A stretch of 64,000 nt of DNA, taken from positions 351-64,350 of the forward strand of contig CALCKW010000059.1 of assembly GCA_937965695.1 (NCBI GenBank), given 5' to 3'. Source of the DNA: an uncultured Granulosicoccaceae bacterium. GTDB lineage: Bacteria; Pseudomonadota; Gammaproteobacteria; CALCKW01. The notes under the pieces were generated by a model. That model was not told the origin of the DNA. It did not search any database and saw only the letters and a list, made by a program, of their open reading frames with translations. Position numbers and translations under genes: made by a program. Shown piece by piece: positions 35,301 through 58,625 of the stretch. The number at the start of each line of letters is the position of its first letter. The first letter of the stretch is position 1.

Positions 35301-36343
35301 GTGACAACCTAGACCAAGGTGTGTGGCAGCGGCGTTGGAACCCCGTCTTCGGTGAATGGGTGATAATGGCGTCCCGCACCGGCAATCGACCGTGGCAGGG
35401 GAAAAAAAGCGCCGCAGCCGATCGAGAAATTCCACCACATGATAAAAACTGCTATTTGTGCCCAGAATCCACCCGCGCCAATGGCCAGCAGAACCCTAAC
35501 TACGGATCGGTGTTTGCTTTCGACAACGACTTTGCCAGCTTTTCGAGCGAGGCGCCTGAGCCAACGTTGCAAAACGATCCTTGCGTGGAGCAAGCAAGTA
35601 ATCAGGGCTCGTGTCGAGTGCATTGCTGGTCGCCGCGGCACGATCTGACGTTAGCCAGACTCGGTGCGGAAAAATTGGGCGATGTGGTTTCTCTTTGGGC
35701 CCGAGAATACACCGAGTTATCGGCTCTAGAGCGCGTGCAATATGTTCTGATGTTTGAAAACAAAGGTGAAGAAGTCGGTGCCTCCAATCCTCACCCGCAT
35801 GGTCAAGCTTATGCAATGGGTTACTTGCCGGGTAAGGTTGCCCGAGTGCAGGCGAGCATGCAGCAGTGGCACACGCAGAACAAGATTTCGGTGTTGCAAT
35901 CGCTTTTGGCTCACCCAGATTGGCAAAGTTTGTTTATTGAAGAAAACGAACATTTCGTCCATTTGACCCCTTGGGCCGCGCGCTTCCCCTACGAAACATG
36001 GATCGTCCCCAAACGGGCATTGCCGCATCTCGCTGATCTGAGCGTTGAAGAGAGTCGAGCCTTGGCAGATATTTTCTCTCATGCGTCGATACGTTACGAC
36101 AATTTATTCCAGCGTGATTGTCCGAACATGACGATGCACTACAACGCGCCATCGGTGCCTGATTTACAGCAAGGCTGGCATTACTTTTGTTGTATGCAGC
36201 CGCCGTTGCGCGATGCCAACACGCTCAAATACCTAGCAGGGTTTGAAACTGGGGCGGGAGATATCGTGAACCCCGTGTCTCCAGCTCAGGCCGCAAGCCA
36301 GTTGCGTGAGCAAACGACCGTGCATTTCTCGGAGCTCAGCTAA
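35297..36343 (+). CDS. galT: Galactose-1-phosphate uridylyltransferase
   Basis: The Zn-site CxxC (CYLCPE), the HxH-type active-site region (HPHGQ) and the overall length fit GalT. It is translationally coupled to galK. Confidence 0.8.
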   Translation: MSDNLDQGVWQRRWNPVFGEWVIMASRTGNRPWQGKKSAAADREIPPHDKNCYLCPESTRANGQQNPNYGSVFAFDNDFASFSSEAPEPTLQNDPCVEQASNQGSCRVHCWSPRHDLTLARLGAEKLGDVVSLWAREYTELSALERVQYVLMFENKGEEVGASNPHPHGQAYAMGYLPGKVARVQASMQQWHTQNKISVLQSLLAHPDWQSLFIEENEHFVHLTPWAARFPYETWIVPKRALPHLADLSVEESRALADIFSHASIRYDNLFQRDCPNMTMHYNAPSVPDLQQGWHYFCCMQPPLRDANTLKYLAGFETGAGDIVNPVSPAQAASQLREQTTVHFSELS

Positions 36344-38262: not shown

Positions 38263-38356
38263 TTGTAAGAAGTATCGTTTTTTATCCGGACAACAGGTGT
38301 TGTCCAAGAACCGACGGGCAGGACTATGCCCGCATAATGACTCACTTAGGAGAGTA

Positions 38357-39607: not shown

Positions 39608-39619
39608 GGCTTAGCCCGA

Positions 39620-39648
39620 GATGGGTCGCTCTGACCCATCTTTTTTAA
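39620..39648 (+). terminator. Rho-independent terminator after the sugar SBP gene
   Basis: The sequence GATGGGTCgctctGACCCATC is followed by TTTTTTAA. Confidence 0.5.
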
Positions 39649-39649
39649 C

Positions 39650-40633
39650 GTGGATAAAACGATGAGCCAATTCCAGAACAGTCAAAGTTGGTACAAGAGA
39701 AATCAGTTGCAGATAGCACCTTGGTTGTTCGTGGCACCAGCTCTATTTTTCTTCAGTATTTACGTCATCATTCCCATCTTTCAATCAATATCTATTTCTT
39801 TTTACGAATGGAATGGGCTCTATAACGCAGCGGGTGAATCCACAGCGAAGTGGGTCGGCTTTGATAACTACGTCAAGCTGATGGATGATGATAATTTTTA
39901 CACCTCTCTGAAAAACAATTTGATCTGGTTGCTGCTGTTTATGGCTGCAGTGCCCATCGGCCTCGCATTGGCGCTGTTTCTCAATCAAACAGTGACCGGT
40001 ATGCGTTTTTACAAGTCAATGTTCTTTTTCCCTTTTGTTATTTCCCAAGTAGTCGTTGGTTTGATATTTGGCTGGTTTTACAACCCTGAATTTGGTGTGG
40101 TCGGCTCCATCTGGAAAGCGTTGTATTGCGAGGAAGTCACCAACATCATGGGTAACCTAACCAGTAAATGCAGTGTTCAACCACCCAATATCCTTGGCGA
40201 TGAAAACTGGGCAACCTATGGCATTATTTTCGCGGGCCTTTGGCCACAAGTTGCCTATTGCATGATCTTATACCTGACAGGACTAAATAACGTGTCGCCG
40301 GATCAAATTGAAGCGGCACGCCTAGACGGCGCACGCGGCTTTAAGATGTTGCGTTACGTGATTCTACCGCAGCTAGCACCAGCTACTTTTCTCGCTGTTG
40401 TAGTGACGGTTATTGGTGCGCTGCGTTCCTTTGACATGATTGCTATCATGACTCGCGGCGGTCCTTATGGTTCCAGTAACGTGCTGGCTTACTATATGTA
40501 TGAAACCGCAATCTCTGAGTACGGAGATCGATACGGTTACGGCTCCGCCATTGCGACCGTACTGTTTTTGATCATGTTGGTATACATCTCTTACTTCTTA
40601 TTTAAGATGTATAGAGACGAGCGAGGTCAATAA
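39650..40633 (+). CDS. Sugar ABC permease (MalF/UgpA-like)
   Basis: It is polytopic with an EAA-loop region (EAARLDGARGFKMLRYVILP). Confidence 0.8.
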   Translation: MDKTMSQFQNSQSWYKRNQLQIAPWLFVAPALFFFSIYVIIPIFQSISISFYEWNGLYNAAGESTAKWVGFDNYVKLMDDDNFYTSLKNNLIWLLLFMAAVPIGLALALFLNQTVTGMRFYKSMFFFPFVISQVVVGLIFGWFYNPEFGVVGSIWKALYCEEVTNIMGNLTSKCSVQPPNILGDENWATYGIIFAGLWPQVAYCMILYLTGLNNVSPDQIEAARLDGARGFKMLRYVILPQLAPATFLAVVVTVIGALRSFDMIAIMTRGGPYGSSNVLAYYMYETAISEYGDRYGYGSAIATVLFLIMLVYISYFLFKMYRDERGQ

Positions 40634-40634
40634 C

Positions 40635-41486
40635 ATGTATCCGAGTCCTATAGAGAAAGCCTCACCGTTCAAGCGAATTGCTTACAAAATGGTGTTGCCG
40701 GTAGCGTTGTTTGTTTGGCTGCTGCCTTTGCTGGCGATTTTCATGACATCGATTCGCCCTGCTGCCGATATCAACACGGGCAATATGTTTGGCTGGCCCA
40801 GCGCATTTAATTTGGTGGAGAACTACACCGCGGTATTTACCGAGTCTCAGGCTGCTAGTTATTTTTGGAATTCAATTAAAGTCACCGTGCCAACAGTTGT
40901 CATGGCGCTGGTGCTTTCTTGTTTGGCAGGCTATGGACTAGCCATTTATCGATTTAAGTTTGCGCTGCCGTTGTTTTTCTTGTTCATCGCAGGCAATTTT
41001 GTCCCTTTTCAAATTCTGATGGTGCCTGTTCGTGATCTATCAGTACGCACTGGTCTCTACGACACAGTTACTGGGCTTGTGCTATTCCATGCGGCATTCC
41101 AGACGGGTTTTTGTACCTTGTTTATGCGAAACTTTATTAGAGGCCTACCGCACGAGCTCATCGAAAGCGCGCGCATAGAGGGTGTAGGGGAGTTACGTAT
41201 TTTTTGGTATGTGGTACTTCCATTAGTACGCCCAGCCATCGCAGCGCTTGCTGTTTTGATCTTTACGTTTATCTGGAATGATTTTTTCTGGGCTACTGTA
41301 TTGACTCAAGGGGAGGCATCTAAACCAATTACTGCGGGTATACGCGCGCTAAACGGACAGTTTGTCTCTCAATGGCACCTTGTGTCGGCAGCATCTCTGA
41401 TGGCGGCATTACCACCTGTTCTTATGTTCTTCGCGATGCAAAAGCACTTTATCGCCGGATTGACACTAGGCGCGACCAAGGGCTGA
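40635..41486 (+). CDS. Sugar ABC permease (MalG/UgpE-like)
   Basis: It is polytopic with an EAA-loop (ESARIEGVGELRIFWYVVLP). Confidence 0.8.
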   Translation: MYPSPIEKASPFKRIAYKMVLPVALFVWLLPLLAIFMTSIRPAADINTGNMFGWPSAFNLVENYTAVFTESQAASYFWNSIKVTVPTVVMALVLSCLAGYGLAIYRFKFALPLFFLFIAGNFVPFQILMVPVRDLSVRTGLYDTVTGLVLFHAAFQTGFCTLFMRNFIRGLPHELIESARIEGVGELRIFWYVVLPLVRPAIAALAVLIFTFIWNDFFWATVLTQGEASKPITAGIRALNGQFVSQWHLVSAASLMAALPPVLMFFAMQKHFIAGLTLGATKG

Positions 41487-41589: not shown

Positions 41590-42729
41590 TTACCTGCCTG
41601 ACGGACTCTCACTCGGTGAAAGTTTTTTACGCTTTCCCAGCTTAAAGCGATCGGCTGTTGCGTATTCGCCTGCGGCGACACCGGCAGCAAAATCGCCAAA
41701 CACTGGGCCATGCTTGAACAGGTGGCCTGAACAACCACCGACCATCAACACCTTGTCGTGGGCAGGATGCCAGTCAACGATAAAATGCGTGTCAGGTGTA
41801 AGGATGATCTGATTGAACTTGCTGTCGACCACGCGCTCTCCCTCAAGACCAGGAAGGCGCTTACGGATGTATTGGCGTGTGCGGTCAATGGTGGAGCGGC
41901 GAATGAGTCGCTCGTCGTTATCTAGGTCAATTTTGTCCGGGATAACGACCGCTGCTTTAACACCGTGACCCTCCACTGAAGGCATACCAAAGCTGCCCTG
42001 ACCGTGGTCAATCCAGCAAGGCATATTGCTGTGGTCGTAACGCTCATTTCCAGCAGGCGTAGCGGTATAGAGTACATTGACACCTACCACCGTACTGATT
42101 GGTTTGATGGTGCGTGGAAACATATCAGCCATCCATGGCCCCGTAGCGATGATAATGCGATCCGCTTGCATGCGCTTGCCATCCAGCAGCGGGTATTCGT
42201 CGGCGTCTGTGCTGACAGCACCACGTTTGACGACACCCCCCAATTTCTGAAACAACTGCACCGCGGAAATAACCGCGCGGTGAGCCATTAGCAAGCCTGC
42301 CTCTGGTTCGTATATACCGTAAGCGATGTCATCGCTCTTGAACTGCGGAAATCTCACCGCCAGTTCACGTTGATCAAAGCGGTGGTGAGGGACACCCAGC
42401 TTGGAGAACGTTTCGCAGGTAGCGTCCTCCCAGTCGCAGTGCCCAGCGGTTGCCAAAATGAGGGCCCCGCATTCGTAGTAAAGGCGCTGTCCTGTTTCCT
42501 CTTGCAATTCAAGCCACTGCAGGCGTGCTTCTCGAGCCCAACGCGTGTAGAACTCGTCGCGGCCGTGAATGGCACGGATGACCCGGTTGTAATCGGTTGA
42601 CGACGCGCGCGGATGGCCTGGCTCCCATTTGTCGATCAACGTAACAGAGTGTCCTCGTCGCTGCAGAGATAGGGCGGTCATGGTGCCTGCGATACCGGCA
42701 CCCACCACAATAATGTCGTTGAAATTCAT
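41590..42729 (-). CDS. FAD-dependent oxidoreductase, DAO family (sarcosine-oxidase-beta / gamma-glutamyl-amine oxidase PuuB / opine-oxidase-like)
   Basis: The start is at MNFNDIIVVGAGIAGTMTALSL, a dinucleotide-binding motif, and the ORF is about 380 aa. It is divergent from the GS-like gene and shares the palindrome-bearing intergenic region. Confidence 0.75.
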   Translation of the reverse strand: MNFNDIIVVGAGIAGTMTALSLQRRGHSVTLIDKWEPGHPRASSTDYNRVIRAIHGRDEFYTRWAREARLQWLELQEETGQRLYYECGALILATAGHCDWEDATCETFSKLGVPHHRFDQRELAVRFPQFKSDDIAYGIYEPEAGLLMAHRAVISAVQLFQKLGGVVKRGAVSTDADEYPLLDGKRMQADRIIIATGPWMADMFPRTIKPISTVVGVNVLYTATPAGNERYDHSNMPCWIDHGQGSFGMPSVEGHGVKAAVVIPDKIDLDNDERLIRRSTIDRTRQYIRKRLPGLEGERVVDSKFNQIILTPDTHFIVDWHPAHDKVLMVGGCSGHLFKHGPVFGDFAAGVAAGEYATADRFKLGKRKKLSPSESPSGR

Positions 42730-42763
42730 TAATGTTCCAAAAAAACGTTGCAATTCGCGTTGA

Positions 42764-42780
42764 TTGAATACAGTATACAA
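42764..42780. promoter_or_regulatory. 17-bp near-palindrome TTGAATAC-A-GTATACAA, a candidate GntR-type operator in the divergent promoter region of the DAO gene and the BMC operon
   Basis: I read this directly from the sequence. A nearly identical element, cTGTATAC-A-GTATACAA, lies at 55538..55554. Confidence 0.45.
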
Positions 42781-42853
42781 AAACGCGAAAATGAGCAAGA
42801 TAAAGCATCGGATAGATGTATAGTAACGGTAAATCAACTCGGAGAGGTCGCAT

Positions 42854-44149
42854 ATGAATCAGCTGGATCCCACACTGCCTGAGGGTATTCACACTGTCGC
42901 CATGGGCATTGGAGACGCCAACGGCATCATGCGTGGCAAACGGATTCCCGCCAGTCATTGGAAATCGATCTGTGACGGGGGATGCACTATGTCACTCGCG
43001 ACCTTCGCTATTGATATGACGTGTGATGTTTGGGACACGCCCTATGTCAATTTCGACAACGGTTATCCGGATATGCATATTTTTCCGATCTCTCAGCCCA
43101 AAGAATGCCCGTGGGAGCCAGGGGTGGCCGTGTGTATGGCACAGGCCGTTGGCACAGACCATAAACCTGTGCCAATAGATCCTCGAAATGCGCTTGTTCG
43201 ACAGGTAGAGCGCGCACGAGAGATGGGTTTTGAAGTGAGTGTGGGGACAGAGCTGGAGTTTTATTTGCTTGACCCAGAAACTAAGATGCCTAAAGACGCA
43301 GGCATTGGTGTCTACAGCTTGGTGCGGGCTGCTGAGCTTGAACATGTGCTCGGGCCGATTCGCAATGGCTTGGTCGAAGTGGGTATTCCTATAGAACAAT
43401 CCAATCCCGAGTATGCCGCTGGTCAGGTGGAAGTGAATATTCGCTTTGACGAGGCACTGTTAGCCGCCGATCGTGTCGTGATGTTTCGCAATCTGGTGAA
43501 AGAACTTTCAATGCATCACGGCTACTTGGCAACGTTCATGTCCAAGCCCTTTTTGGAAGAGTCGGGTAGTGGCTTTCACACCCATTACTCGCTGTGGCGA
43601 GACGGTAAAAATCAGTTCAGTGATGATGGCAAGTTTAACCAACTCGGTCGTCATTTTGTGGCGGGCTTGCAAAAAAGAATGGCGGAGATGGCGCTTGCTT
43701 CAGCGTCTAACCCCAATGCCTATCGCCGACGTCAGCCATATACTTTTTGCCCGACCAATACCAGTTGGGGCCCCGACAATCGCACGGTGGGTTTGCGCGT
43801 GATCGAAGGCTCTGAAAGTGCTGCTCGTATCGAAAAACGTGATGGATCTGCAGATTGCAATCCTTATTACTTGCTCGCTTGCGAGTTGGCGGCGGGCCTG
43901 GATGGTATCGAGGCTGGCGAGGAGCCGTCTGAAATGACCACGGGCAATGCCTATGAATCCGAGACTGAAGGTCTTATCCCCGCTGACATGGCCACTGCAA
44001 TAGCCTTGGCGAAAGAGTCAACGTTTATGCGTGACGTTATGGGTGAAAGCGGGCTTCAGATCATGATTCAACAAGCAGAGCGAGAACTCGAATTCATCGC
44101 GACACCAATATCACCGGTAGAGATTGAGCGCTACCTTGGAAACTTTTAA
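42854..44149 (+). CDS. Glutamine-synthetase-family ligase (gamma-glutamyl-amine synthetase; GmaS/PuuA/IpuC-like)
   Basis: The ORF is 431 aa with a GS catalytic-domain pattern (…EVNIRFDEAL…GSGFHTHYSLW…NPYY…). Its stop overlaps the start of the BMC vertex gene (TAATG). Confidence 0.75.
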   Translation: MNQLDPTLPEGIHTVAMGIGDANGIMRGKRIPASHWKSICDGGCTMSLATFAIDMTCDVWDTPYVNFDNGYPDMHIFPISQPKECPWEPGVAVCMAQAVGTDHKPVPIDPRNALVRQVERAREMGFEVSVGTELEFYLLDPETKMPKDAGIGVYSLVRAAELEHVLGPIRNGLVEVGIPIEQSNPEYAAGQVEVNIRFDEALLAADRVVMFRNLVKELSMHHGYLATFMSKPFLEESGSGFHTHYSLWRDGKNQFSDDGKFNQLGRHFVAGLQKRMAEMALASASNPNAYRRRQPYTFCPTNTSWGPDNRTVGLRVIEGSESAARIEKRDGSADCNPYYLLACELAAGLDGIEAGEEPSEMTTGNAYESETEGLIPADMATAIALAKESTFMRDVMGESGLQIMIQQAERELEFIATPISPVEIERYLGNF

Positions 44150-44442
44150 TGCGCTTGGCTAATGTCACAGGCACTGTCACAGCGACAGTCAAATCTCAGT
44201 CGCTAACTGGGTTGAAGTTTTTGCTGGTGGACTATACAGACGCCGGCGGCAAAGTTATCGATGCGGCACGTGTTGTTGCGGACGATGTTGGTGCCGGCGT
44301 AGGTGACCAAGTCATTGTCAGCGAAGGATCAGCCGCACGATTACCCAATGGCATGGCAGGCTTAGCGGTGGACGCGACGGTTTTGGCCATTGTGGACGAG
44401 GTTAAAACAAAGGCAAGAAGGGCGGCAGCCAAGTCCGGCTGA
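44149..44442 (+). CDS. Bacterial microcompartment vertex protein (BMC-P; EutN/CcmL/PduN family)
   Basis: The sequence MRLANVTGTVTATVKSQSLTGLKFLLVDY…VGAGVGDQVIVSEGSAARL… has the typical EutN/CcmL pattern. The ORF is 97 aa. Confidence 0.85.
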   Translation: MRLANVTGTVTATVKSQSLTGLKFLLVDYTDAGGKVIDAARVVADDVGAGVGDQVIVSEGSAARLPNGMAGLAVDATVLAIVDEVKTKARRAAAKSG

Positions 44443-44557: not shown

Positions 44558-44866
44558 ATGGCGACAAAACAAGCACCCGGGCAGTCAGCACTGGGCATGA
44601 TCGAGACACGGGGTTTGGTAGCAGCGGTTGAAGCGGCCGACGCAATGGTAAAAGCAGCTAACGTCACTATCGTAGGGCAAACCAAGGCTGGTGGTGGACT
44701 GATCACAATCCTAATCCGCGGCGAAGTCGGTGCTGTTAAAGCTGCAGCTGATGCTGGTGCCAATGCTGCAAATAAAGTGGGTGATGTTGTGGCCGTCCAC
44801 GTCATTCCGCGACCACACGATGAAGTCGAAGGAATTTTGAGCGCACTCGGCGGTGGCGGCGAGTAG
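44558..44866 (+). CDS. Bacterial microcompartment hexamer shell protein (BMC-H; PduA/EutM/CcmK family)
   Basis: The canonical Pfam00936 pattern is present: [58 protein letters not shown]…VHVIPRPH. The ORF is 102 aa. Confidence 0.9.
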
Positions 44867-45035: not shown

Positions 45036-46244
45036 ATGAGCGACGTGGACTTCGAGCGCTTCACCCAGTCTCTGGGTGTTCAAACGTCAGGAGCAAGCGC
45101 TGCTACTTCGGCGAAACGTTTTGAGCGCGCATGCGTATTGGGTGGAGACAGCGATGCCTGGTTGTTGGCGGCAATTTGTGTGGCCAATGACACTCCGGTG
45201 AAATTGTTTTCTGCCTACGCTGCTGAGCTTGACCCACTGCGCTCAGCCGGTGGTGTGACACTGCGAGGCGCTGGACCCATAGGAACTGTCGCACTAGATC
45301 AAAGTAAGTCTGCAAGCATTGAGACAACCACGGTGCTTGATTCAGCTGTCAATGACAGCGATATCATCTTTTTAACTGGGCCAGTGCACAAACTGCGCAC
45401 CTGGGCGATGGTGTTGGCAGGTCATCTGCGTGATGGTCAGGTCGTTGTCGTTTTGAATGCTCGTACATTTGGCGCTTTAGAGACTCGAAGTTTGTTGAGG
45501 CTAGGTGGTAGTACGGCAGATTGCACTATCGTCGAGTTGCAAGGTGCACCTTGGTGGTTAGCTGCTTCAGGCACCCAACTGCAACTTTCAAAACGGACGG
45601 CCCCATTGGCGGCCACGCTTCCAGCTCGGCGCGAGCATGTGCTTCAGGGTTTGCAGGCTTTGATTGGTAAAATACAACCATGTACCTCAACACTCTACAG
45701 CAGTTTTGGAGATTGCAGTGGTGTTGTGGAATTACCTGCATTGGTGCTAGGCGGTCCGTTCAATCCCAACGGGGGACCAGCTGTTCCGGATGGTGCAAAC
45801 GCACTGCCTGTACATCAGAATTTTCATAACCTATTTGGTGAAAGCCATCGGCTTGTAGCCTCGCAATTGCTCGACGAACGTCGTTTGGTGGCCTCCAAGT
45901 TTGGTGTGCGAGATCTACCAAATCTTGAGTTGGCATTGAGCGACTATGCAGGCGGGGTTGAAGCAGATGATTCACGCGCAATTCCCAACTTGCAGCAAAG
46001 CAGAGAGATGCTCCGCTGTGCAGTAATTGCGTCGCTATTGCCATTGCAAAGTGCTGCGCAGTTGGCGGGTGTTGCAGTTCCTGTAACGCAGGCGATGACG
46101 ACACTGGGTAGCAGTTTGCTCGACGCTGATTTAACGGCGGCTGGACGATGGCTCGAAAGTTTGGGTGTGGCCAGTACGAGTTTCGATGATTGCAAGCGAT
46201 CTTTAGCTGAACTAATAGACGGAGAATCTAGCGGTGGACGCTGA
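45036..46244 (+). CDS. Opine-dehydrogenase-like (octopine/nopaline DH family) protein with N-terminal amphipathic-helix-plus-linker extension
   Basis: It is collinear with Arthrobacter-type opine dehydrogenase. The matching pairs are DSDIIFLTGPVHKLRTWAMVLAGHLRDGQVVVVLNARTFGALETRSLL versus DADVILIVVPAIHHASIAANIASYISEGQLIILNPGATGGALEFRKIL, and LLDERRLVASKFGV versus VDAERIAIAKAFDL. The GxGxxG motif is replaced by GGDSDAW. The first ~30 aa (VDFERFTQSL plus a GASAATSA linker) are extra. This assignment is by recalled homology and is not searched. Confidence 0.5.
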   Translation: MSDVDFERFTQSLGVQTSGASAATSAKRFERACVLGGDSDAWLLAAICVANDTPVKLFSAYAAELDPLRSAGGVTLRGAGPIGTVALDQSKSASIETTTVLDSAVNDSDIIFLTGPVHKLRTWAMVLAGHLRDGQVVVVLNARTFGALETRSLLRLGGSTADCTIVELQGAPWWLAASGTQLQLSKRTAPLAATLPARREHVLQGLQALIGKIQPCTSTLYSSFGDCSGVVELPALVLGGPFNPNGGPAVPDGANALPVHQNFHNLFGESHRLVASQLLDERRLVASKFGVRDLPNLELALSDYAGGVEADDSRAIPNLQQSREMLRCAVIASLLPLQSAAQLAGVAVPVTQAMTTLGSSLLDADLTAAGRWLESLGVASTSFDDCKRSLAELIDGESSGGR

Positions 46245-47613
46245 TTTAAGATCAATACAAGCAGCACGTGAGGCGGCCGATAAGGCTTTCACCGCATGGC
46301 AGACTTTTAAAAACACGGACCCAGCACAGATTGATGAAATAGTGCAGGCGATGGCGCGTGCCATTGAGCCTGAGGCCCTACGCTTGGCTGAGCTAGCGGT
46401 CGAAGAAACGGGTTACGGGAATGTGCCGGATAAACGCATAAAAAATCTGTTTAATTCTCTTTCAGTGGCTGAATGGCTGCGCGACATTAAGACGCTGGGC
46501 TTGTTGTGGCAGGATGAGCGAACCAAAATTGCCGCAATCGGTGAACCGATGGGTTTGGTGGCAGCGTTGATCCCGGTGACAAATCCCACATCGACCATTA
46601 TTTATAAGGTTTTGTCGGCTGTTAAGGCTGGCAACGCTATTGTTTGCGCGCCGCATCCACGTGGGGTCAAAAGCGGTGTTGCAACCGTAGAAATCATGGC
46701 GCGTGTTGCCGAGCAAATGGGTGCGCCTAAGGGACTCATTCAGTGTTTGGATCAAGTGACAAACCAAGGCACTGCTGAACTCATGAAACATCGACGTACG
46801 TCGGTGGTTATGGCTACCGGTGGACCGGCCATGGTGCAGGCCGCTTATTCATCTGGTAAGCCAACTCTGGCTGTTGGAGCAGGTAATGTGCCTTGTTATG
46901 TCCATGCCTCAAAAAAATCGGAACTAGCCGAGGTCGCTGAACAAATATTGACCTCTAAGAGCTTTGACTACGGCACCGCTTGTGTCTCGGAGCAGGCGAT
47001 TGTTGTCGATCGTGAAATTGCCGGGCAGTTGCGGCATGAGATGCGTATGCGTGGTGGTTATTTTTGCACCGCTTCCGAAGCTGAGCGTTTGGCAAAAGTG
47101 ATCTTTACGCCAAATAACAGCATGAACCCAAACAATGTAGGTCAATCACCTGAGAGTTTGGCTTCGCAGGCGGATATCCAAATTCCACCCAATTGCCGCG
47201 CTCTTATTGCCGATCAAAGTGAAATAGGCTGGCATGCTCCCTTGTCCGCAGAGAAATTAAACCCGGTGTTGGCTTGGTACGAAAGCAAAGACAGCGACGA
47301 GGGCATCGACATCTCTGAGCGGATCGCTAAGTTTGGCGGTTGGGGCCACAGTGCGGTGGTGCATTCAAATGATCCCGGCATTGTGAGTCAGTACAGCCGC
47401 CTGCCCGTTGGGCGTGTGCTGGCCAACACACCCGGTATTTTGGGTGGTATGGGATTCTCGACGGATCTAGAACCGAGTTTCATGCTGGGAACAGGCACCT
47501 CTTCTGGCTCCATTGTTTCTGACAATGTGACAGCCTTGCATTTGATTAATATAAAACGTGTCGCTTGGCAAAATAGGCCATGGCGAGACATCTATGATAT
47601 CTACGGAGAATAA
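46234..47613 (+). CDS. CoA-acylating aldehyde dehydrogenase (EutE/PduP-type metabolosome signature enzyme)
   Basis: The ORF is 459 aa in the ALDH superfamily. It has the BMC-AldDH-style N-terminal region (…FKNTDPAQIDEIVQAMARAIE…) and a catalytic Cys context (GTACVSEQ). It overlaps the upstream gene by 11 nt and sits between shell genes. Confidence 0.75.
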   Translation: MDADLRSIQAAREAADKAFTAWQTFKNTDPAQIDEIVQAMARAIEPEALRLAELAVEETGYGNVPDKRIKNLFNSLSVAEWLRDIKTLGLLWQDERTKIAAIGEPMGLVAALIPVTNPTSTIIYKVLSAVKAGNAIVCAPHPRGVKSGVATVEIMARVAEQMGAPKGLIQCLDQVTNQGTAELMKHRRTSVVMATGGPAMVQAAYSSGKPTLAVGAGNVPCYVHASKKSELAEVAEQILTSKSFDYGTACVSEQAIVVDREIAGQLRHEMRMRGGYFCTASEAERLAKVIFTPNNSMNPNNVGQSPESLASQADIQIPPNCRALIADQSEIGWHAPLSAEKLNPVLAWYESKDSDEGIDISERIAKFGGWGHSAVVHSNDPGIVSQYSRLPVGRVLANTPGILGGMGFSTDLEPSFMLGTGTSSGSIVSDNVTALHLINIKRVAWQNRPWRDIYDIYGE

Positions 47614-47615
47614 GC

Positions 47616-48242
47616 GTGGCGAGTAAAATTACTATACGAGCGTTGATGCAGATCGACCGCTTGCAGCCAAAATTTGCTGCCTACAACGGTGCAACGGTAC
47701 AAGGTTCTGTGCCGCTCGCGGGCGATACCGTGCTTATTGGTGAGTTTGCACCTGGGAATGGGGTGTTTACCTTAATTGATAAGGCGCTGAAAGCGAGCGC
47801 TGTTGAGGCTACTTCGCAGTTGGTCGAGCGCGAGTTTGGTTTTTTTATTCTTCGTTCTACGTCTAACGCGGAAGTGAGTGCGGCGAGAGATGCCATTCTC
47901 TCGGAGTTAGGCGCAAGCATGGAATCGCGTATCAAGCCTCAGCTTGAGTCTACTCAAATCATAACCTCCGTTGAGCCCTATCAAGCCCAATTGATTAATA
48001 AGTGGCGTAAAGGCGCATTGCTGGTTCCTGGCCAGACACTGGGTATTGTTGAGTGCTCGCCAGCGGCTTATATCTCTGTTGCGGCCAACGAAGCTGAAAA
48101 GGCAGCTCACATAGATATTGTAGAAGTGAGGGCGGTAGGACGTTTTGGTCGTTTGTTTATTTCTGGTGGTGAAGACGATGTGAAGACCGCCATCGCAGCC
48201 GCGAGCAAAGCCATTGAAGCAATGGATGGGCAGTCGGCCTAA
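47616..48242 (+). CDS. Tandem-BMC-domain shell protein (BMC-T, PduT-like)
   Basis: The ORF is 208 aa. The second half (TLGIVECSPAAYISVAANEAEKAAHIDIVEVRAVGRFGRLFISGGEDDVKTAIAAASKAIE) is a clear BMC domain. The first half is a more divergent BMC-like domain. Confidence 0.6.
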   Translation: MASKITIRALMQIDRLQPKFAAYNGATVQGSVPLAGDTVLIGEFAPGNGVFTLIDKALKASAVEATSQLVEREFGFFILRSTSNAEVSAARDAILSELGASMESRIKPQLESTQIITSVEPYQAQLINKWRKGALLVPGQTLGIVECSPAAYISVAANEAEKAAHIDIVEVRAVGRFGRLFISGGEDDVKTAIAAASKAIEAMDGQSA

Positions 48243-49423
48243 TGGCGGATTTGGTCAGCGATGCGGATGTCATTGCCGCTCATCGTCGAGGGCGGATGGT
48301 GATAGAAATCGTACCGGGAACGATTGTTACACAGCAAGCTCGTGATACTGCAGCGCGGCTGGGCGTCTCGCTACACGAGGGTTTGCTGGAGCGTCCTCAA
48401 GCGCCTCGCACTGATGGCAATGTGAGTTTGAGGCGTAACTTATGGCGTCGTAACCCTGGCTGGATTTCACCGCTAAATAAACCGACACCACGTGCACGCC
48501 GTATAAAAAAGTTAGCACTGATAGGTGCTGGCGGGGTAGGTGCCAATATTGCGCATTTGGTGTGCAATGCTCACTCAGCTGATCTAGTGTGCTTAATAGA
48601 TGTGGTGCCGGGCTTGGCAGAATCTGTCGCTTTGGACCTTGAGCATGCCACCGGTGTCAATCGATCTGCAACACGCGTCAGTGGTGGAGAATCGCTGCAA
48701 GCGGTTGCGGGTGCTGAAGTGGTTGTTGTTACAGCAGGGCGACCGCGTACACCGGGTATGGGTCGCAGTGATCTGCTGGATATTAACCGACGTGTTATCC
48801 GAACGGCAGCTCAGGCGATCAGTGAGCATGCACCAGAGGCGATTGTTATTGTTGTCACCAATCCCCTCGACGAGATGACCGTTGAAATGCTTCGCGCAAC
48901 AGGATTTCCGAGACAGCGAGTGCTTGGCATGGCCGGCACACTTGACAGCAGCCGGTTCCGCCGTGCACTAGCAAAAGAAGCGGGTGTTGCGGTGGCTGAT
49001 GTAGAAGCCATAACACTCGGCAGCCATGGCGATGAAATGACGCCAATCACTTCTCGCGCCCGTATTCGCGGTCGTACGTTAGAGACTGTGTTGTCGCAAG
49101 AGCAAATAGACGCCTGCGCAAAAGATGCCGTCACCGGTGGAGGGCAGGTAGTAGCACTGCGCAAGACGGGTTCAGCGACTGTTGCGCCTGCACACTCAAC
49201 CGTAGAACTCATTGACCACATCCGAGGTGCACTGAATGGCGCTGTGCCAGTCTCGGTAATGCTAGAAGGCGAATACGGAATAACTGGCGTAGTTCTAGGG
49301 GTCCCTTGCTTGATTGGTGCTAGCGGTGTGTTGGAGGTAGAAGAGCTGGCCTTAAATGAATCTGAAAGTCAGATGCTTCACGCGGCGGCGCAAGCGATTA
49401 CAGAGCGATTGAACGATGCCTGA
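48242..49423 (+). CDS. Lactate/malate dehydrogenase-family NAD-dependent 2-hydroxyacid dehydrogenase with ~90-aa N-terminal extension
   Basis: The LDH/MDH core begins at about aa 95: LALIGAGGVGANIAHL, VVVTAGRPRTPGMGRSDLL and GSHGDEMTPI (catalytic His). The preceding 90 aa (MADLVSDADVIAAHRRGRMVIEIVPGTIVTQQARDTAARLGVSL…) are not part of the LDH fold. The start overlaps the BMC-T stop (TAATG). Confidence 0.75.
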   Translation: MADLVSDADVIAAHRRGRMVIEIVPGTIVTQQARDTAARLGVSLHEGLLERPQAPRTDGNVSLRRNLWRRNPGWISPLNKPTPRARRIKKLALIGAGGVGANIAHLVCNAHSADLVCLIDVVPGLAESVALDLEHATGVNRSATRVSGGESLQAVAGAEVVVVTAGRPRTPGMGRSDLLDINRRVIRTAAQAISEHAPEAIVIVVTNPLDEMTVEMLRATGFPRQRVLGMAGTLDSSRFRRALAKEAGVAVADVEAITLGSHGDEMTPITSRARIRGRTLETVLSQEQIDACAKDAVTGGGQVVALRKTGSATVAPAHSTVELIDHIRGALNGAVPVSVMLEGEYGITGVVLGVPCLIGASGVLEVEELALNESESQMLHAAAQAITERLNDA

Positions 49424-49832
49424 TCCTGTTTTGTTGAAAGCGGCAGGCGGTGGTCGATTTGAAAAAATTGGCGCCTACGCGCGAGCGCGTCGCGTGGGCC
49501 CTTTTGTGTATGTGGCAGGCACGACTGCGATAGCGTCAAACGGGCTACTGCACGCACCCGGTGACACTTACGCACAAACGCTTTTTATCTTTGAACGCAT
49601 AGAGCAAGCATTGGCCGATGTACAAGCTGAGATGCGACATGTGGTCCGCACCCGAGCATTTTTTAGCGAAATCGCCAACGGTGGCGATTTCGTTCGTGCG
49701 CATGGTGAGGTTTTTACGGGTATCGAACCCGTCACCAGTGGCGTCGCCGCTGGATTGACAACCCCGGGCATGATGATTGAAATCGAAGTGGATGCTTTAG
49801 TCCACGACACCCAAGGAAATATACAGTGGTGA
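49416..49832 (+). CDS. RidA/YjgF/TdcF-family reactive enamine/imine deaminase
   Basis: The ORF is 138 aa with a RidA family pattern (…FVYVAGTTA… …TRAFFSEI… …GIEPVTSGV… …IEIEVDALV). It overlaps both neighbours. Confidence 0.75.
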   Translation: MPDPVLLKAAGGGRFEKIGAYARARRVGPFVYVAGTTAIASNGLLHAPGDTYAQTLFIFERIEQALADVQAEMRHVVRTRAFFSEIANGGDFVRAHGEVFTGIEPVTSGVAAGLTTPGMMIEIEVDALVHDTQGNIQW

Positions 49833-51706
49833 GCGGCGTTCATAACACCCCATCTGGCGGATGGGCCTCATGGTTCGATCTGCGCAGCCGCGAGTCCCTG
49901 TTGTCTGCGTTTCTACTTTTTGCGATCGTGTGTGTTTTGCTGGCGGCAGCCGCCTACTTTGAACTCGCTAGTCCTCGCTTACTCAAGATTGGCTGCGTCA
50001 ACTTAATCGCTGCATTAGCGCTGGGTCTTTTCAGCGGTTCAACGGGTGTTCTATCTCTCGGACATGTCGCGTTTTTTGGTATTGGCGCCTACGTTAGCGC
50101 GTGGTTCACTTTAATTCCCGCAATCAAAGGCATGCTCTTGCCTGACATGCCAGTTTTTATTCAGCAATCGCAGTGGAGTCTCTGGTTCGCCGTTATTCCA
50201 GCCATCATCGCTGGTCTATTGGCCGGTGTTTTGACTGGTTTCGTGATGCGGCGCTTGCGTGATACTTCCGCCGTTATCGCGAGTTTTGGTTTTTTAGTCA
50301 TTTTTTACCTTTTGTTTATAGGGTTGAAAATTTTTACGAATGGAAAACAATCCCTTTATGCCTTACCCATCGACCAATTGAGTTGGCCGTTAACCATGAC
50401 AGCGATCGCAACGGCTCTGCTTGTCACATTTGCCATACGCGCCAGTGCATTGGGAAGGGCGGCGGAGTCCTTGCGAGATAATGAAGCAGCTGCTCGTTCT
50501 GTTGGCGTAGACGCTGACCGTACCTTCTTTTGGGTGTGGGTCGCCAGTGCTGCACTGATGGCTATGGCTGGCGCCTTGTTTGCGCACTCCATTGGCATCG
50601 CGTCTCCTAGCAGTTTCTATTTAGATAAAACATTCGCTCTTATTGTGATGATAATCGTTGGGGGTTATCGGTCATTGACGGGTTGCGCTCTGGGTGCGGT
50701 GTTAATAACAATCGTTGAAGAATTACTAAAGCACGCAGAAGAATCTTTGGGTGCCCTTGCAGGCCAACAAGTACTGGGCGGTCTTATTGAAATGCCCCGT
50801 GTTTTTGGCCTAACGGCCTTGTGCTTCTCAGCGATTATTTTGTTGGTGTTGTATTTACGCCCAGAGGGCGTGATTGGCTATCGCGAATTGGCGCAAGCAG
50901 GTCTTATAAGACGACTGTTTGGGCGATGGCTCGAACCTGCCAGCAAGGGTGAAGAACAAGTCATCTACTCTGTGCCCAAGGAGTCGGAACTGTCCGCGCA
51001 GTCTTTGGGTAAAAATTATGGCTATTTTAGCGCCATGAGTGACGTGAGCTTTGAAGTAGGACCAGGGGAAATTGTTGGACTGATCGGGCCTAATGGTGCA
51101 GGTAAGAGCACCTTTATCAATGTAATGACCGGGAACCTTTTTGCGAGCTCTGGCGCTATTTTCCTAAACGGAGAAAATGCGACTCAGTGGAGTGCGCATG
51201 ACTTGGCGCGTCGTGGCATGGGCCGTACTTTTCAAAATATTCGGTTATTTGCCTCGCTTAGCACGTTGGACAATGTGCTGACGTCTGTCAACGTTGCCTC
51301 TCCCAAACTATCTCGTGTTGATGCTGAAGTGCTGGCGATGAATTGGCTACGCGAGCTTAATCTAGATCAGCACGCCCTGGAAGCAGGAGGCTCACTAGCC
51401 TATGGCGATCAGAGACGATTAGAAATAGCCCGTGCTTTGGCTTTGGAACCGCATTTCTTGCTGTTAGACGAACCCGCAGCGGGCATGAACGATTCCGAGA
51501 CCCATCAGTTGCAGCAATTGCTTAAAGATATCGTTCAGCGAATAGGTTGCGGTGTCATTTTGATCGAGCACGATATGCCAATGGTCATGGCGCTCTGCGA
51601 CCGACTGGTTGTGCTCAATAAGGGAGAGCAAATTGCCTCTGGCCCAGTGGCCGATGTGCGTAAAGATCCACAAGTTATAGAGGCTTACATCGGGGAATCA
51701 CCTTAA
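49826..51706 (+). CDS. Fused HAAT-family ABC transporter: LivM-like permease domain + LivG-like ATPase domain in one polypeptide
   Basis: The N-terminal ~370 aa are polytopic. The C-terminal ~250 aa carry Walker A ([10 protein letters not shown]), the signature (YGDQRRLEIARALA) and Walker B (LLLDEPAAGM). A GTG start overlaps the RidA stop. Confidence 0.75.
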   Translation: MVSGVHNTPSGGWASWFDLRSRESLLSAFLLFAIVCVLLAAAAYFELASPRLLKIGCVNLIAALALGLFSGSTGVLSLGHVAFFGIGAYVSAWFTLIPAIKGMLLPDMPVFIQQSQWSLWFAVIPAIIAGLLAGVLTGFVMRRLRDTSAVIASFGFLVIFYLLFIGLKIFTNGKQSLYALPIDQLSWPLTMTAIATALLVTFAIRASALGRAAESLRDNEAAARSVGVDADRTFFWVWVASAALMAMAGALFAHSIGIASPSSFYLDKTFALIVMIIVGGYRSLTGCALGAVLITIVEELLKHAEESLGALAGQQVLGGLIEMPRVFGLTALCFSAIILLVLYLRPEGVIGYRELAQAGLIRRLFGRWLEPASKGEEQVIYSVPKESELSAQSLGKNYGYFSAMSDVSFEVGPGEIVGLIGPNGAGKSTFINVMTGNLFASSGAIFLNGENATQWSAHDLARRGMGRTFQNIRLFASLSTLDNVLTSVNVASPKLSRVDAEVLAMNWLRELNLDQHALEAGGSLAYGDQRRLEIARALALEPHFLLLDEPAAGMNDSETHQLQQLLKDIVQRIGCGVILIEHDMPMVMALCDRLVVLNKGEQIASGPVADVRKDPQVIEAYIGESP

Positions 51707-55409: not shown

Positions 55410-55537
55410 ATAGAGGTGAGAGTGTTCCTGACAATGGAGCGTGAAATTTAGCTGAACGAGCCGCCTGAGCGGCTTTTAGAGCCAAAAACTGGGTGTTTAA
55501 AAAAACATCATAGCAATGATTGATTGATTCAGGAATA

Positions 55538-55554
55538 CTGTATACAGTATACAA
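55538..55554. promoter_or_regulatory. 17-bp palindrome cTGTATAC-A-GTATACAA, a candidate GntR-type operator between the GntR gene and the mgsA-like gene
   Basis: I read this directly from the sequence. It shares 16/17 positions with the site at 42764..42780, and the 13-mer ATACAGTATACAA is identical in both. Confidence 0.45.
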
Positions 55555-55576
55555 CGTACATTATGAGGGGAATAAC

Positions 55577-56521
55577 ATGTGTGGGATAGCTGGGAGAATT
55601 TTAAATAGCCCTGGCCGTGTCGGTGATGACTTAGTCGATCTGATGGCGGCCCAGTCTCACCGGGGGGCCGACTCGACAGGTTTTGCTGTATACGGGCCGC
55701 CAAGAACCGATGGTTATATCGTTCGCGCGATGGGTTTTGATCGAAGTGCAATGGACTCGGATCTGGCAGACTTTGAGAAGATCTTGCGTCAACACGGCTC
55801 AGACTGGTTGGAAGAGCCAACGTGGAACGGTGGCACTGATAGCCATTACTCAGTACGTGCTGTTATTAAAGACCCTTCAGACATCGCGCAGTGGATAAAA
55901 GAAGCCGATGCTATATGTGAACGTCTCGAGGTGCAATCGCTCGGTCGCTCACTGGAGATTGTCAAGGACACGGGTGATGCGAATGCCGTTGCGGAAAAAC
56001 ATGGTGTTCGTGAAATGGTGGGCACTCATGGATTAGGTCATGCACGTTTGGCCACTGAAAGCTCGGTACTGCCTAATGCCAGCCACCCTTTTTGGGCGCG
56101 ACCGTTCCCCGATGTAGCCATTGTGCACAACGGACAGATTACTGACTACTACACGCAGCGCGATCGCCTAGAGCGCAAGGGTTATCGATTTATGACCCAG
56201 AACGACAGTGAGTTGATTGCCGTATGGGTCTCCGACCAGATGTCGCAGGGGCTCGATAAACACGAAGCGCTGCGCAAGTCGATCGATTCTATTGATGGGG
56301 TATTTACCTTCCTCATTACTGACCCAACCAGCATGGGGTTCGCCAAAGATCGTTTTGCCATGAAACCGCTTGTGACGGTGGAATCTGTAGGTCAATTGTC
56401 CGCTGCAACGGAAGAGCAAGCCGTTCGACGTATCGAGCCTGAAGAATCAGATGTGATCAACTACGACGGTCCTTCAATGACTCGTCTATGGCCGGTTGAT
56501 TCGACGGAGGCTGCAGCATGA
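55577..56521 (+). CDS. Class-II (Ntn) glutamine amidotransferase domain protein (GltB1 / N-methylglutamate-synthase subunit A-like)
   Basis: The start is called at the ATG preceded by GAGGGG, giving MCGIAGRIL… with the nucleophilic Cys at position 2 after Met removal. The ORF is about 314 aa. Confidence 0.7.
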   Translation: MCGIAGRILNSPGRVGDDLVDLMAAQSHRGADSTGFAVYGPPRTDGYIVRAMGFDRSAMDSDLADFEKILRQHGSDWLEEPTWNGGTDSHYSVRAVIKDPSDIAQWIKEADAICERLEVQSLGRSLEIVKDTGDANAVAEKHGVREMVGTHGLGHARLATESSVLPNASHPFWARPFPDVAIVHNGQITDYYTQRDRLERKGYRFMTQNDSELIAVWVSDQMSQGLDKHEALRKSIDSIDGVFTFLITDPTSMGFAKDRFAMKPLVTVESVGQLSAATEEQAVRRIEPEESDVINYDGPSMTRLWPVDSTEAAA

Positions 56522-57210
56522 GCGAAGTTGAAGTCAAAGTAGGCGAGCGGTCTATTCGTGAGATCAACGAAGAAATCCAGGAGCACGCCGCAAACGGTTT
56601 GCCGATGCACATTACCGATACACTCTCTAGACATAACTTAGGTATTGGTTTGCCAAAAGGGGCAAAGTTGCGCTTTGATGGCAGCGTTGGTTATTACTGC
56701 GGTGGTTTGAATAACGGCGCGACGATTACCGTGGAGCGTAATTCAGGCTGGGGCACTGGTGAAGCACAGGCAGCAGGGGATATCACCGTCGGCGGTTATG
56801 CGGGGATGTCTGTGGGTGCGGCGATGCTCGGCGGTGTAATCCATGTCAAAGGTGACTGCGGCCCTCGTTGCGGTGTGGCGATGAAAGGTGGCGATATTAT
56901 TGTCGAAGGCAAACTCGGTTATCAAGCTGGGTTTATGTCGCACGGCGGGCGCATAATAGCGCTCGGCGGTGCGGGTGAGTCTTGTGCTGATGCGCTTTGG
57001 GAAGGCGAGGTCTGGGTTGCCGGGCCGGTCGAGTCACTGGGTGTGGACGCCAAAATTGTCGAGCCTGAGGCAGCAGAAATTGCCTCGGTAGAAGAACTGC
57101 TAGCCACACGTGGTTTGGCAGACAACAACAGAGAGTGGCGCAAAATCGTATCCGGTCAGCGCCTGTGGTACTTCGAGAGTCGGGAAGCAAACGCATGGCT
57201 AATGATATGA
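56518..57210 (+). CDS. GXGXG-motif glutamate-synthase C-terminal-domain-like protein (GltB3 / MgsB-like)
   Basis: Repeated GxGxG beta-helix motifs are present (GGVIHVKGDCGPRCGVAMKGGDIIVEGKLGYQAGFMSHGGRIIALGGAGE). The ORF is 230 aa. It overlaps the previous gene by 4 nt. Confidence 0.7.
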   Translation: MSEVEVKVGERSIREINEEIQEHAANGLPMHITDTLSRHNLGIGLPKGAKLRFDGSVGYYCGGLNNGATITVERNSGWGTGEAQAAGDITVGGYAGMSVGAAMLGGVIHVKGDCGPRCGVAMKGGDIIVEGKLGYQAGFMSHGGRIIALGGAGESCADALWEGEVWVAGPVESLGVDAKIVEPEAAEIASVEELLATRGLADNNREWRKIVSGQRLWYFESREANAWLMI

Positions 57211-58625
57211 ATAATTCAGATGAAGAACGGTACAGTTACCCCTTTGAAATGCCTAGCGAAGAAGCGGTCGCGTTTAGTGACGGTGCTATAGATGGACGTC
57301 CTGCGGGTGTCCCATCATCATATGACAAGGGTGGTTCATTGCGTTGGACACCCGATGCCATTTCCGAAGTGCATGCCCTGGCACAGTTGGGCCGCTATCA
57401 GGTGCGCGGTTATAACTGTTTTAACCAGCGCTTGCCCACTTTTGACGATCTGACCTTTGTACCGGCGACGATGACGCGTTTGCCGCTTGAGGGTTACAGA
57501 GAAAAGTGTGACACCACAACAATTTTGGGTAACAGCGGCAACGTTGAAAACCCGCTGGAATTGAAAATCCCGATTTATATCGCCAGCATGAGTTTTGGTG
57601 CGCTGTCGGCAAGTGCCAAAGCTGCGCTTGGATACGGTGCGTCGAAAGTAGGCACAATGACCTGCACCGGCGAAGGCGGCATGCTCGAAGAAGAGCGCGC
57701 TGCCAGTGAGCGTTTGGTCTATCAAATGAGCCCAGCTCGCTACGGCTTGGATTTAGATCACTTGCGACGTGCAGATGGTCTTGAGCTGGTTGTAGGCCAA
57801 GGCGCTAAACCTGGCACGGGTGGCCTGCTACTCGGTATGAAGGTGTCAGAACGCGTTTCCAAAATGCGCACTTTGCCGCCAGGCGTAGATCAACGCTCGA
57901 CGATTCGTCACCCAGACTTTTTAGGTGCAGATGACTTGGCCGTGAAGATCGAGGAGCTGCGTATCGCGACTAACTACAAAGTGCCAATCAGCATCAAGAT
58001 GGGTGCAACGAGACCGCGTTATGATGTTGCCATTGCGGCTAAAGCAGGCGCTGATATCATTGTTGTAGATGGCGCAGAAGGAGGCACCGGTGCCTCTCCA
58101 GAAATGCTGCTCAACCACACGGGTATTCCCAATATCTCTGCAATTCGCGCAGCGCGCGAGGCGTTGGATGAATGCGGTATGTCGGGTAAGGTATCCTTGG
58201 TTGCAGCCGGTGGTATTCGCAGTGGTGTGGATGCGGCTAAATGCTTGGCGTTGGGTGCTGATGCCGTCATGATCGGCAATGCTTCAATGATAGCAATGGG
58301 TTGTAACTCGCCGCGATACGAAGAAGATTACGCCAAGTTAGGTACTTCACCAGGTGCCTGCCATCATTGTCATACAGGCTTGTGTCCTGTGGGTATCGCC
58401 ACACAAGATCCCGATCTAGAAGCACGCATGGACGTGGCTGTGGGTGCAGAACGTGTTGCACGCTACTTGACCGCCATGACCATGGAGATCACCGCACTTG
58501 CTAAAGCTTGTGGTAAATCTTCAGTTCACAACCTAGAGCCAGAAGATCTTCGAGCACTGAGCTTTGAAGCTTCAGCATTTACTGGTGTAAAAATGGCGGG
58601 TATCGATCGCGCTTTTGGTTGGTAA
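57207..58625 (+). CDS. FMN-binding glutamate-synthase-domain protein (GltB2 / MgsC-like)
   Basis: An ATGA start–stop overlap couples it to the previous gene. A TIM-barrel FMN domain pattern is present (…IYIASMSFGALS…GEGG…VVGQGAKPGTGG…IIVVDGAEGGTGASP…), and there is a Cys cluster (CHHCHTGLCPVGIATQDP) for an Fe-S centre. Confidence 0.7.
   Translation: MNNSDEERYSYPFEMPSEEAVAFSDGAIDGRPAGVPSSYDKGGSLRWTPDAISEVHALAQLGRYQVRGYNCFNQRLPTFDDLTFVPATMTRLPLEGYREKCDTTTILGNSGNVENPLELKIPIYIASMSFGALSASAKAALGYGASKVGTMTCTGEGGMLEEERAASERLVYQMSPARYGLDLDHLRRADGLELVVGQGAKPGTGGLLLGMKVSERVSKMRTLPPGVDQRSTIRHPDFLGADDLAVKIEELRIATNYKVPISIKMGATRPRYDVAIAAKAGADIIVVDGAEGGTGASPEMLLNHTGIPNISAIRAAREALDECGMSGKVSLVAAGGIRSGVDAAKCLALGADAVMIGNASMIAMGCNSPRYEEDYAKLGTSPGACHHCHTGLCPVGIATQDPDLEARMDVAVGAERVARYLTAMTMEITALAKACGKSSVHNLEPEDLRALSFEASAFTGVKMAGIDRAFGW

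Follow-up and report, generated by a model that had tools for sequence, protein, structure and literature searches.

The stretch of DNA analysed here, referred to as the window, comprises 64,000 nucleotides of contig CALCKW010000059.1 (positions 351 to 64,350 of the forward strand; assembly GCA_937965695.1) from an uncultured Granulosicoccaceae bacterium. It carries a bacterial microcompartment (BMC) locus in which a homolog of the lactate dehydrogenase (LDH)-like malate dehydrogenases begins with an N-terminal extension upstream of its Rossmann fold (Table 1). The locus belongs to the MIC2 type, which Sutter et al. (2021, Nat Commun, Supplementary Data 2) defined from 22 loci of Alpha- and Gammaproteobacteria, Acidithiobacillia and two Actinobacteria. 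It shares with MIC2 the enzymes, namely an aldehyde dehydrogenase, an LDH/malate dehydrogenase (MDH) family protein (pfam02866), a 6-phosphogluconate dehydrogenase (6PGDH)/opine-dehydrogenase-like protein and a glutamine-synthetase-like protein (pfam00120), as well as the shell of one BMC-H, one BMC-P and one BMC-T(dp) and the N-terminal extension on the LDH/MDH protein. Nothing essential differs, and the window represents another member of the type, with about 71% identity to the closest representative genome; the MIC2 locus of Ruegeria sp. ANG-R, listed in the catalog, is part of the orthologous set used here (locus L038). No characterisation of MIC2 was found in the literature since 2021. 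The extension and its link to EutQ have been known since that catalog, which describes the pfam02866 protein of MIC2 as carrying an extension roughly 70 amino acids long with similarity to EutQ, related to cupins and with a possible ligand role, and reports a similar domain in MIC1 (Sutter et al. 2021). An earlier note on this DNA, made from the sequence alone, had called the extension a module of unknown type, a description that the catalog overtakes. The present finding is one more MIC2 locus, which confirms a feature of the catalog supplement. To this are added a reassignment of the extension, until now cupin-like and maybe ligand-binding, to that part of EutQ whose shell binding has been defined by experiment, its three-part anatomy, and the recurrence of its first part as a mark of varied cargo proteins in several microcompartment types.

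Conservation, anatomy and relatives of the N-terminal extension

Pfam places Ldh_1_N at residues 90-229 and Ldh_1_C at residues 233-392 of the dehydrogenase (E 7e-33 and 5e-27), and a Pfam scan of residues 1-93 gave no match even at E≤1. The Rossmann strand and its GAGGVG motif are not reached before residues 88-100, with KKLALIGAGGVGANIAHL beginning at residue 89 and GAGGVG occupying residues 95-100; the peptide RMVIEIVPGTIVTQQARDTAARLGVSLHEGL corresponds to residues 18-48 of the extension. The ATG overlaps by its A the stop codon TAA of the upstream BMC-T gene (TAATG), and no in-frame ATG, GTG or TTG was found between V61/L63 and the Rossmann strand, which together make the start codon credible. 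All of the best 120 database homologs (63-71% identity, 392-409 amino acids, query coverage 92-100%) carry the extension, with 94-107 residues preceding the GxGGxG motif, and E22, T30, A33, A37, L44, G47, R65, R70 and W74 are invariant within it in an alignment of 83 sequences. When 73 orthologous genes taken from genome contigs were compared with the window, residues 4-47 diverged by 0.40 at the first, 0.29 at the second and 0.76 at the third codon position, and are therefore a translated region under purifying selection. The extension is genuine, translated and conserved. That it is an artefact of annotation, the true start being internal, has as its sole point the silence of Pfam on residues 1-93 and is excluded by the missing in-frame start codon near the Rossmann strand, the overlap of the ATG with the upstream stop codon, the codon-position pattern typical of coding DNA and the confident fold given by AlphaFold2. 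The extra module of about 90 amino acids claimed in the earlier note is borne out as about 89 coding amino acids conserved in more than 100 orthologs. The same fusion, which the note had proposed to look for, recurs in its homologs, and the upstream 270 nucleotides, whose lack of conservation it had named as grounds for dismissing the fusion, are conserved in orthologs with a coding-type pattern.

While the catalog gives a cupin-related extension some 70 amino acids long, the extension here has about 89 in three parts and starts with a counterpart of the non-cupin EutQ N-terminus (Table 1). AlphaFold2 predicts for residues 1-47 a beta-alpha-beta-beta-alpha-beta module with helices at residues 7-15 and 31-40, at a predicted local distance difference test score (pLDDT) of 82-93 within the full-length model and of 86.9 for the module alone. 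The helix at residues 59-70 is predicted with middling confidence (pLDDT about 69); the segment to which it belongs, residues 59-77, is limited to the dehydrogenase fusions, neither EutQ nor the other module-bearing proteins having an equivalent, and could serve as a subunit arm or make contact with cargo.

Residues 1-46 of the extension are 34% identical to residues 1-47 of E. coli EutQ over 47 amino acids (BLASTP). When the module was aligned with E. coli EutQ alone (hhalign, probability 89%), the aligned part was EutQ 1-48 only, and since the cupin model of Pfam (PF06249) covers EutQ 85-232, the homology concerns the non-cupin N-terminus. Against a set of EutQ-type N-termini the hhalign probability rose to 99.35% (E 6.5e-21), a value that involves some circularity, five of the six EutQ-side sequences having been retrieved with the query profile. 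The dehydrogenase itself gave no cupin or EutQ match in Pfam, and the C-terminal cupin barrel is absent. The two helices of the module followed by the low-pLDDT linker at residues 48-58 match the order in EutQ of helices H1/H2 and the flexible region 42-61. A search of PDB sequences with the extension profile returned one chance-level match (E 0.15), and the top Foldseek matches of the isolated module were unrelated fragments, for example of eIF5B, LpxI and Cas1. Judged by sequence comparison, residues 1-47 share their ancestry with H1/H2, the part of the EutQ N-terminus that binds the shell, and not with the EutQ cupin.

The module is not confined to dehydrogenases. A profile built from 17 diverse dehydrogenase extensions was searched exhaustively against 1.8 billion representative proteins and gave 80 matches at E≤1e-3, including divergent actinobacterial dehydrogenase fusions. 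Although seeded with dehydrogenase extensions alone, it retrieved EutQ-cupin proteins in which the module is N-terminal and the cupin C-terminal (P0167, E 2.6e-6; P0168, E 4e-6). Other carriers are RpiB isomerases, one phosphotransacetylase (Pta) and proteins of about 250 amino acids without a Pfam domain, which have the module at their C-terminus. Small proteins of 160-245 amino acids consist of two or three tandem copies (P0158, P0160, P0165, P0190, P0163 and P0192; loci L087, L084 and L091). The four other architectures with readable genomic context all directly adjoin BMC or EutN genes (Table 1), the contigs of P0172, P0163 and P0194 being too short for context; on the short contig of P0163 a EutQ-type cupin gene lies upstream. 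The tandem-module proteins resemble dedicated multivalent scaffold proteins. A EutQ-like protein of about 130 amino acids has also been listed for SPU6 loci (Sutter et al. 2021).

Across all module architectures only T30, A33, A37 and G41 are near-invariant. These residues are small and structural, and a docking fold therefore fits better than a ligand site. Two module copies gave weak Pfam matches to E3_binding (P0158, residues 144-162; P0175, residues 29-45) that cover 19 of the 36 profile positions. The module and E3_binding, the peripheral-subunit-binding domain of 2-oxoacid dehydrogenase complexes, have in common the motif (S/T)PxARxLAxExGIxL, a likeness that could reflect distant kinship or the convergence of two protein-docking motifs. 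The classical encapsulation peptides at the N-termini of PduP, PduD, EutC and EutE are likewise terminal, connected by a flexible linker and presumed to package cargo; each is a single amphipathic helix of about 18 amino acids, whereas residues 1-47, as modelled, form a folded alpha/beta module of about 47 amino acids with the motif IVTxxARxxAxxLGI and would fall outside that class.

The catalytic domain and its proposed place in the redox balance

The catalytic domain has the fold of the LDH-like malate dehydrogenases, with a template modelling score of about 0.93 on the target and 38-41% identity to 4cl3, 4plh and 5ujk (Foldseek) and an E value of 2e-70 against PDB sequences (phmmer). Every one of the nearest solved structures is a malate dehydrogenase, and the malate dehydrogenase subfamily model NF004863 of NCBIfam is passed with 316.7 bits against a cut-off of 283. 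H262, D235, R238 and R175, which align with solved enzymes as His195, Asp168, Arg171 and Arg109 (LDH numbering), are invariant in the 83 sequences. R169 in TAGRPRTPGM, also invariant, aligns with the Arg of TAG(I/V)PRKPGM and is the equivalent of Arg102. The fold, the catalytic residues, Arg102 and the NAD-type Asp are shared with the malate dehydrogenases of Chloroflexus aurantiacus (4cl3) and Methylobacterium extorquens (5ujk), from which the window enzyme differs by its 89-residue extension, an extra Arg before Arg102 and a score under the NCBIfam equivalog cut-off. In this family, Arg102 marks a preference for oxaloacetate or another 2-oxo-dicarboxylate over pyruvate. Because the Arg102 equivalent is kept, oxaloacetate or another 2-oxo-dicarboxylate is the likelier putative substrate. 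The earlier note had proposed pyruvate as the electron sink, which is disfavoured by the invariance of this Arg and by the closest structures being malate dehydrogenases; pyruvate was rejected as the preferred reading on the former ground. The NADH-linked enzyme that the note expected finds support in D120, an invariant Asp of the NAD type that closes strand beta-2, matches the LFDI Asp of 4plh and 4ros in the alignment and makes the enzyme look NAD-linked.

The note had further stated that the locus lacks an alcohol dehydrogenase and PduL. Among window open reading frames (ORFs) of at least 150 amino acids neither of these was found, nor was a Pta, and across the 80 orthologous loci no EutD-type Pta and a single EutG-type alcohol dehydrogenase (1 of 80) were found. 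A role of the dehydrogenase in NAD+ recycling is plausible by analogy, and the different cofactor-recycling logic with which the note credited the locus is not new: an LDH/MDH-family protein was argued in 2014 to stand in for the alcohol dehydrogenase as NAD+ regenerator in PVM and possibly MIC1 compartments (Axen 2014, PMC4207490; also Erbilgin 2014). The reasoning is the same, the protein being the only NAD(H) candidate besides the aldehyde dehydrogenase in a locus without an alcohol dehydrogenase, whereas MIC2 is another BMC type. No biochemical demonstration of these recycler roles in PVM or MIC1 was found in the literature. The window protein has the LDH/MDH fold and not that of Fe- or Zn-dependent alcohol dehydrogenases, so that it could be at most a functional analogue of the alcohol dehydrogenase of metabolosomes.

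Proposed shell docking and rival explanations

The precedent for docking comes from EutQ of Salmonella, of which residues 1-99 suffice to carry green fluorescent protein into Eut compartments and, when deleted, leave the cargo separated from the shell (Sci Adv 2025, PMC12487888). Its helices H1/H2 attach to the shell at the interface of EutM and EutL, the flexible stretch 42-61 also matters for shell association, and the EutC and EutE encapsulation peptides are bound by H3/H4 (PMC12487888); in pull-downs, the N-terminal 100 residues of EutQ were required for binding EutM (PMC4827028). The extension resembles this region of Salmonella and E. coli EutQ in its N-terminal position, in the flexible linker that follows and in being attached to an oligomeric enzyme. 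It differs in that the module has no counterpart of the encapsulation-peptide-binding H3/H4, that the enzyme attached is a dehydrogenase and not a cupin acetate kinase, and that the shell set of the window is without EutL. By analogy, residues 1-47 would dock the dehydrogenase onto the shell of EutM-like BMC-H and BMC-T and so encapsulate it; as an expected tetramer, the enzyme would offer four docking arms and could tie cargo to the shell. Inside the compartment it would most likely reduce oxaloacetate or a related 2-oxo-dicarboxylate with NADH presumably supplied by the acylating aldehyde dehydrogenase, and would take the NAD+-recycling place of the absent alcohol dehydrogenase. Taken as a whole, the explanation that this is an NAD-dependent homolog of LDH-like malate dehydrogenases in MIC2, bearing a EutQ-type docking module and recycling NAD+, is favoured with moderate confidence.

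Several points weigh against it. Shell binding and targeting by this region have been demonstrated for Salmonella EutQ only. EutQ docks where EutM meets EutL, and the locus has no EutL-type protein, its BMC-T being a double-stacking protein of the CcmP-like kind. The profile alignment stops at EutQ 48, no homology to the cargo-binding H3/H4 having been found, and the flexible region 42-61 that Salmonella EutQ needs for shell association is not conserved in the extension. To the partial circularity of the stronger profile comparison is added that no structure resembling the isolated module was found in the PDB by Foldseek (best E 0.09). On the catalytic side, the bacterial malate dehydrogenase equivalog TIGR01763 is missed (277 against a cut-off of 351.85). 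An extra invariant Arg, R167, stands two residues before the Arg102 equivalent, giving GRPRTPGM in place of the G(I/V)PRKPGM of solved enzymes (window 48740-48748, residues 167-169), and the enzyme could just as well work oxidatively, as part of the pathway.

The last of these points forms an explanation of its own, in which the dehydrogenase oxidises, for example, a 2-hydroxy-dicarboxylate made in or near the compartment and is not an NAD+ recycler. R167 lies in the specificity loop and, judged from the alignment, may indicate a true substrate other than oxaloacetate, or one that may be more negatively charged. The score under the malate dehydrogenase equivalog cut-off and the lack of a known pathway substrate for MIC2 point the same way. 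Against this, the conserved operon offers no other enzyme for the re-oxidation of NADH, no alcohol dehydrogenase or other reductase is conserved in the locus, and the same logic has already been applied to PVM and MIC1 (PMC4207490). On balance, the oxidative role is considered unlikely, though it deserves to be taken seriously.

The earlier note had left the extension as either an encapsulation or an oligomerisation domain. Encapsulation is now the better supported of the two, through the homology of residues 1-47 to the shell-binding N-terminus of EutQ, and oligomerisation survives only as a rival in which the extension is mainly a stabilising arm, like the N-terminal arm of vertebrate LDH, with no targeting role. 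Residues 59-77 would suit such an arm, being conserved only among dehydrogenase fusions and modelled in the monomer with the middling confidence to be expected if the segment packs against another subunit. Residues 1-47 do not, as they are also found on RpiB, Pta and EutQ cupins and in free-standing tandem proteins, each time in a BMC locus if the context was readable; moreover, bacterial LDH-like malate dehydrogenases, the structures matched by Foldseek among them, form tetramers without an N-terminal arm. An arm without targeting role is therefore judged improbable. Still less credence is given to a small-molecule domain, binding a ligand or effector and related to the EutQ/cupin superfamily, which follows Supplementary Data 2 of the catalog (Sutter et al. 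2021), where the extension is described as "possibly interacting with a ligand". It is made very improbable by the homology lying at EutQ 1-48, outside the cupin barrel at 85-232, by the failure of Pfam cupin models to match the extension, by the small, structural nature of the near-invariant residues (T, A, A and G) and by the experimentally shown protein-docking role of the EutQ N-terminus (PMC12487888).

From the docking explanation, a broader reading may be drawn, which we put forward tentatively as a possibility. The module of about 47 amino acids would be a general, portable shell-docking domain and a second class of microcompartment targeting beside the amphipathic encapsulation peptides, joined to no fewer than five mutually unrelated protein families (LDH-like dehydrogenase, RpiB, Pta, EutQ cupin and families without assignment) and multiplied in scaffold-like proteins. 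The tetrameric MIC2 dehydrogenase, with its four arms and basic helix, would serve as both core-shell organiser and redox recycler, and redox balance would be kept by an oxaloacetate/malate shuttle across the protein shell. If true, the module would provide a sequence tag to predict encapsulated enzymes in uncharacterised microcompartments and a compact folded targeting domain for engineering.

Neighbouring genes and other features of the window

Table 1. Positions of the dehydrogenase, its parts and its neighbours in the window, and of module-bearing proteins in other loci.
Feature	Position	Strand	Evidence or context
Dehydrogenase gene, LDH-like malate dehydrogenase homolog with N-terminal extension, 393 amino acids	48242..49423	+	ORF list, Pfam, more than 100 full-length orthologs
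EutQ-N-terminal-type module, residues 1-47, proposed shell-docking domain	48242..48382	+	BLASTP, hhalign, AlphaFold2
Flexible linker, residues 48-58 (GPLEKP... in orthologs)	48383..48415	+	pLDDT about 53, below 50 at 54-57
Basic helix segment, residues 59-77, consensus TAxRRxLYRRSPxW	48416..48472	+	R65, R70, W74 invariant
Basic, weakly conserved linker into Rossmann strand, residues 78-89	48473..48508	+	76% amino-acid divergence from the window, versus 32% in the catalytic domain
Catalytic domain, LDH-like (tetrameric type) malate dehydrogenase fold, residues 90-393	48509..49420	+	Foldseek, phmmer, NCBIfam
BMC-T shell protein, tandem BMC domains, CcmP-like	47616..48242	+	Pfam BMC; NCBIfam CcmP-like, E 2.3e-60
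BMC-H shell hexamer, candidate docking partner	44558..44866	+	Pfam BMC, E 9.5e-28; 63% identical to E. coli EutM (tblastn with EutM)
BMC-P vertex protein, EutN/CcmL family	44149..44442	+	Pfam EutN_CcmL, E 4.8e-23
Acylating (CoA-dependent type) aldehyde dehydrogenase, presumed NADH producer	46234..47613	+	Pfam Aldedh
Opine-dehydrogenase/6PGDH-like protein, 402 amino acids	45036..46244	+	1bg6 match
Glutamine-synthetase-like ligase, MIC2 hallmark	42854..44149	+	Pfam Gln-synt_C, E 1e-83; 44/44 syntenic loci
RidA-family imine deaminase, directly downstream of dehydrogenase	49416..49832	+	Pfam Ribonuc_L-PSP; 43/44 loci
RpiB fusion with module	L082		Among BMC-P triplet and DeoC aldolase
258-amino-acid protein with module, family unknown	L085/L086		Between BMC-H and BMC-P
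Tandem-module protein, 163 amino acids	L087, 8001-8492		Directly after BMC-H, BMC-P and aldehyde dehydrogenase
Pta fusion with module	L089		Between two BMC genes

The gene order from a divergently transcribed FAD oxidase of the monomeric sarcosine/N-methyltryptophan oxidase type to the dehydrogenase, shell genes included, is kept in all 44 orthologous loci with full flanks. The best NCBIfam match of the aldehyde dehydrogenase is the EutE-type acetylating model, at 492 bits and under the equivalog cut-off. The 402-amino-acid protein has opine dehydrogenase 1bg6 as its best solved relative (E 1e-9), a distant relationship in keeping with the opine link drawn in the earlier note. Its N-terminus is a short amphipathic helix (DVDFERFTQSLGV), which a linker rich in Ser and Ala separates from the Rossmann fold, and this helix looks like a classical encapsulation peptide; in the MIC2 catalog, the 6PGDH-like protein bears an encapsulation peptide of about 10 amino acids and the aldehyde dehydrogenase bears none (Sutter et al. 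2021). Further genes of the locus encode a Liv-type ABC transporter, a GntR regulator and a glutamate-synthase-like trio (amidotransferase, GXGXG and FMN subunits), the trio lying within 10 kb in at least 30 loci.

The MIC2 operon is consistently linked to a set of genes that recalls the N-methylglutamate pathway by which methylamine is used (loci L002-L081; window 41590-44149 and 55520-58625). This set comprises the glutamine-synthetase-like ligase, the glutamate-synthase-like trio and the sarcosine-oxidase-like flavoenzyme, with oxidase and ligase present in 44 of 44 loci, while the catalog lists only the ligase of this set for MIC2 (Sutter et al. 2021). It suggests as MIC2 substrate a primary amine, processed via gamma-glutamyl and N-alkylglutamate intermediates with release of an aldehyde. 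Together with RidA, these conserved neighbours point to testable MIC2 substrates. A 626-amino-acid ORF (window 49826-51706), whose start overlaps the end of the RidA gene, resembles a LivM-LivG fusion and combines a permease of the branched-chain-amino-acid ABC type with an ATPase domain. The listed GTG start of the FMN glutamate-synthase-like ORF overlaps the GXGXG gene by 76 nucleotides (window 57135-57210), and its true start is probably further downstream.

A cluster for galactoside utilisation (window 32002-41486), directly upstream of the microcompartment region and unrelated to it, has genes for a glycoside hydrolase family 36 (GH36) alpha-galactosidase, a galactokinase, a galactose-1-phosphate uridylyltransferase, a GH42 beta-galactosidase and a sugar ABC transporter. 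Two adjacent paralogous ORFs of 343 and 345 amino acids on the reverse strand (window 5416-7884) each contain a YHYH domain of unknown function.

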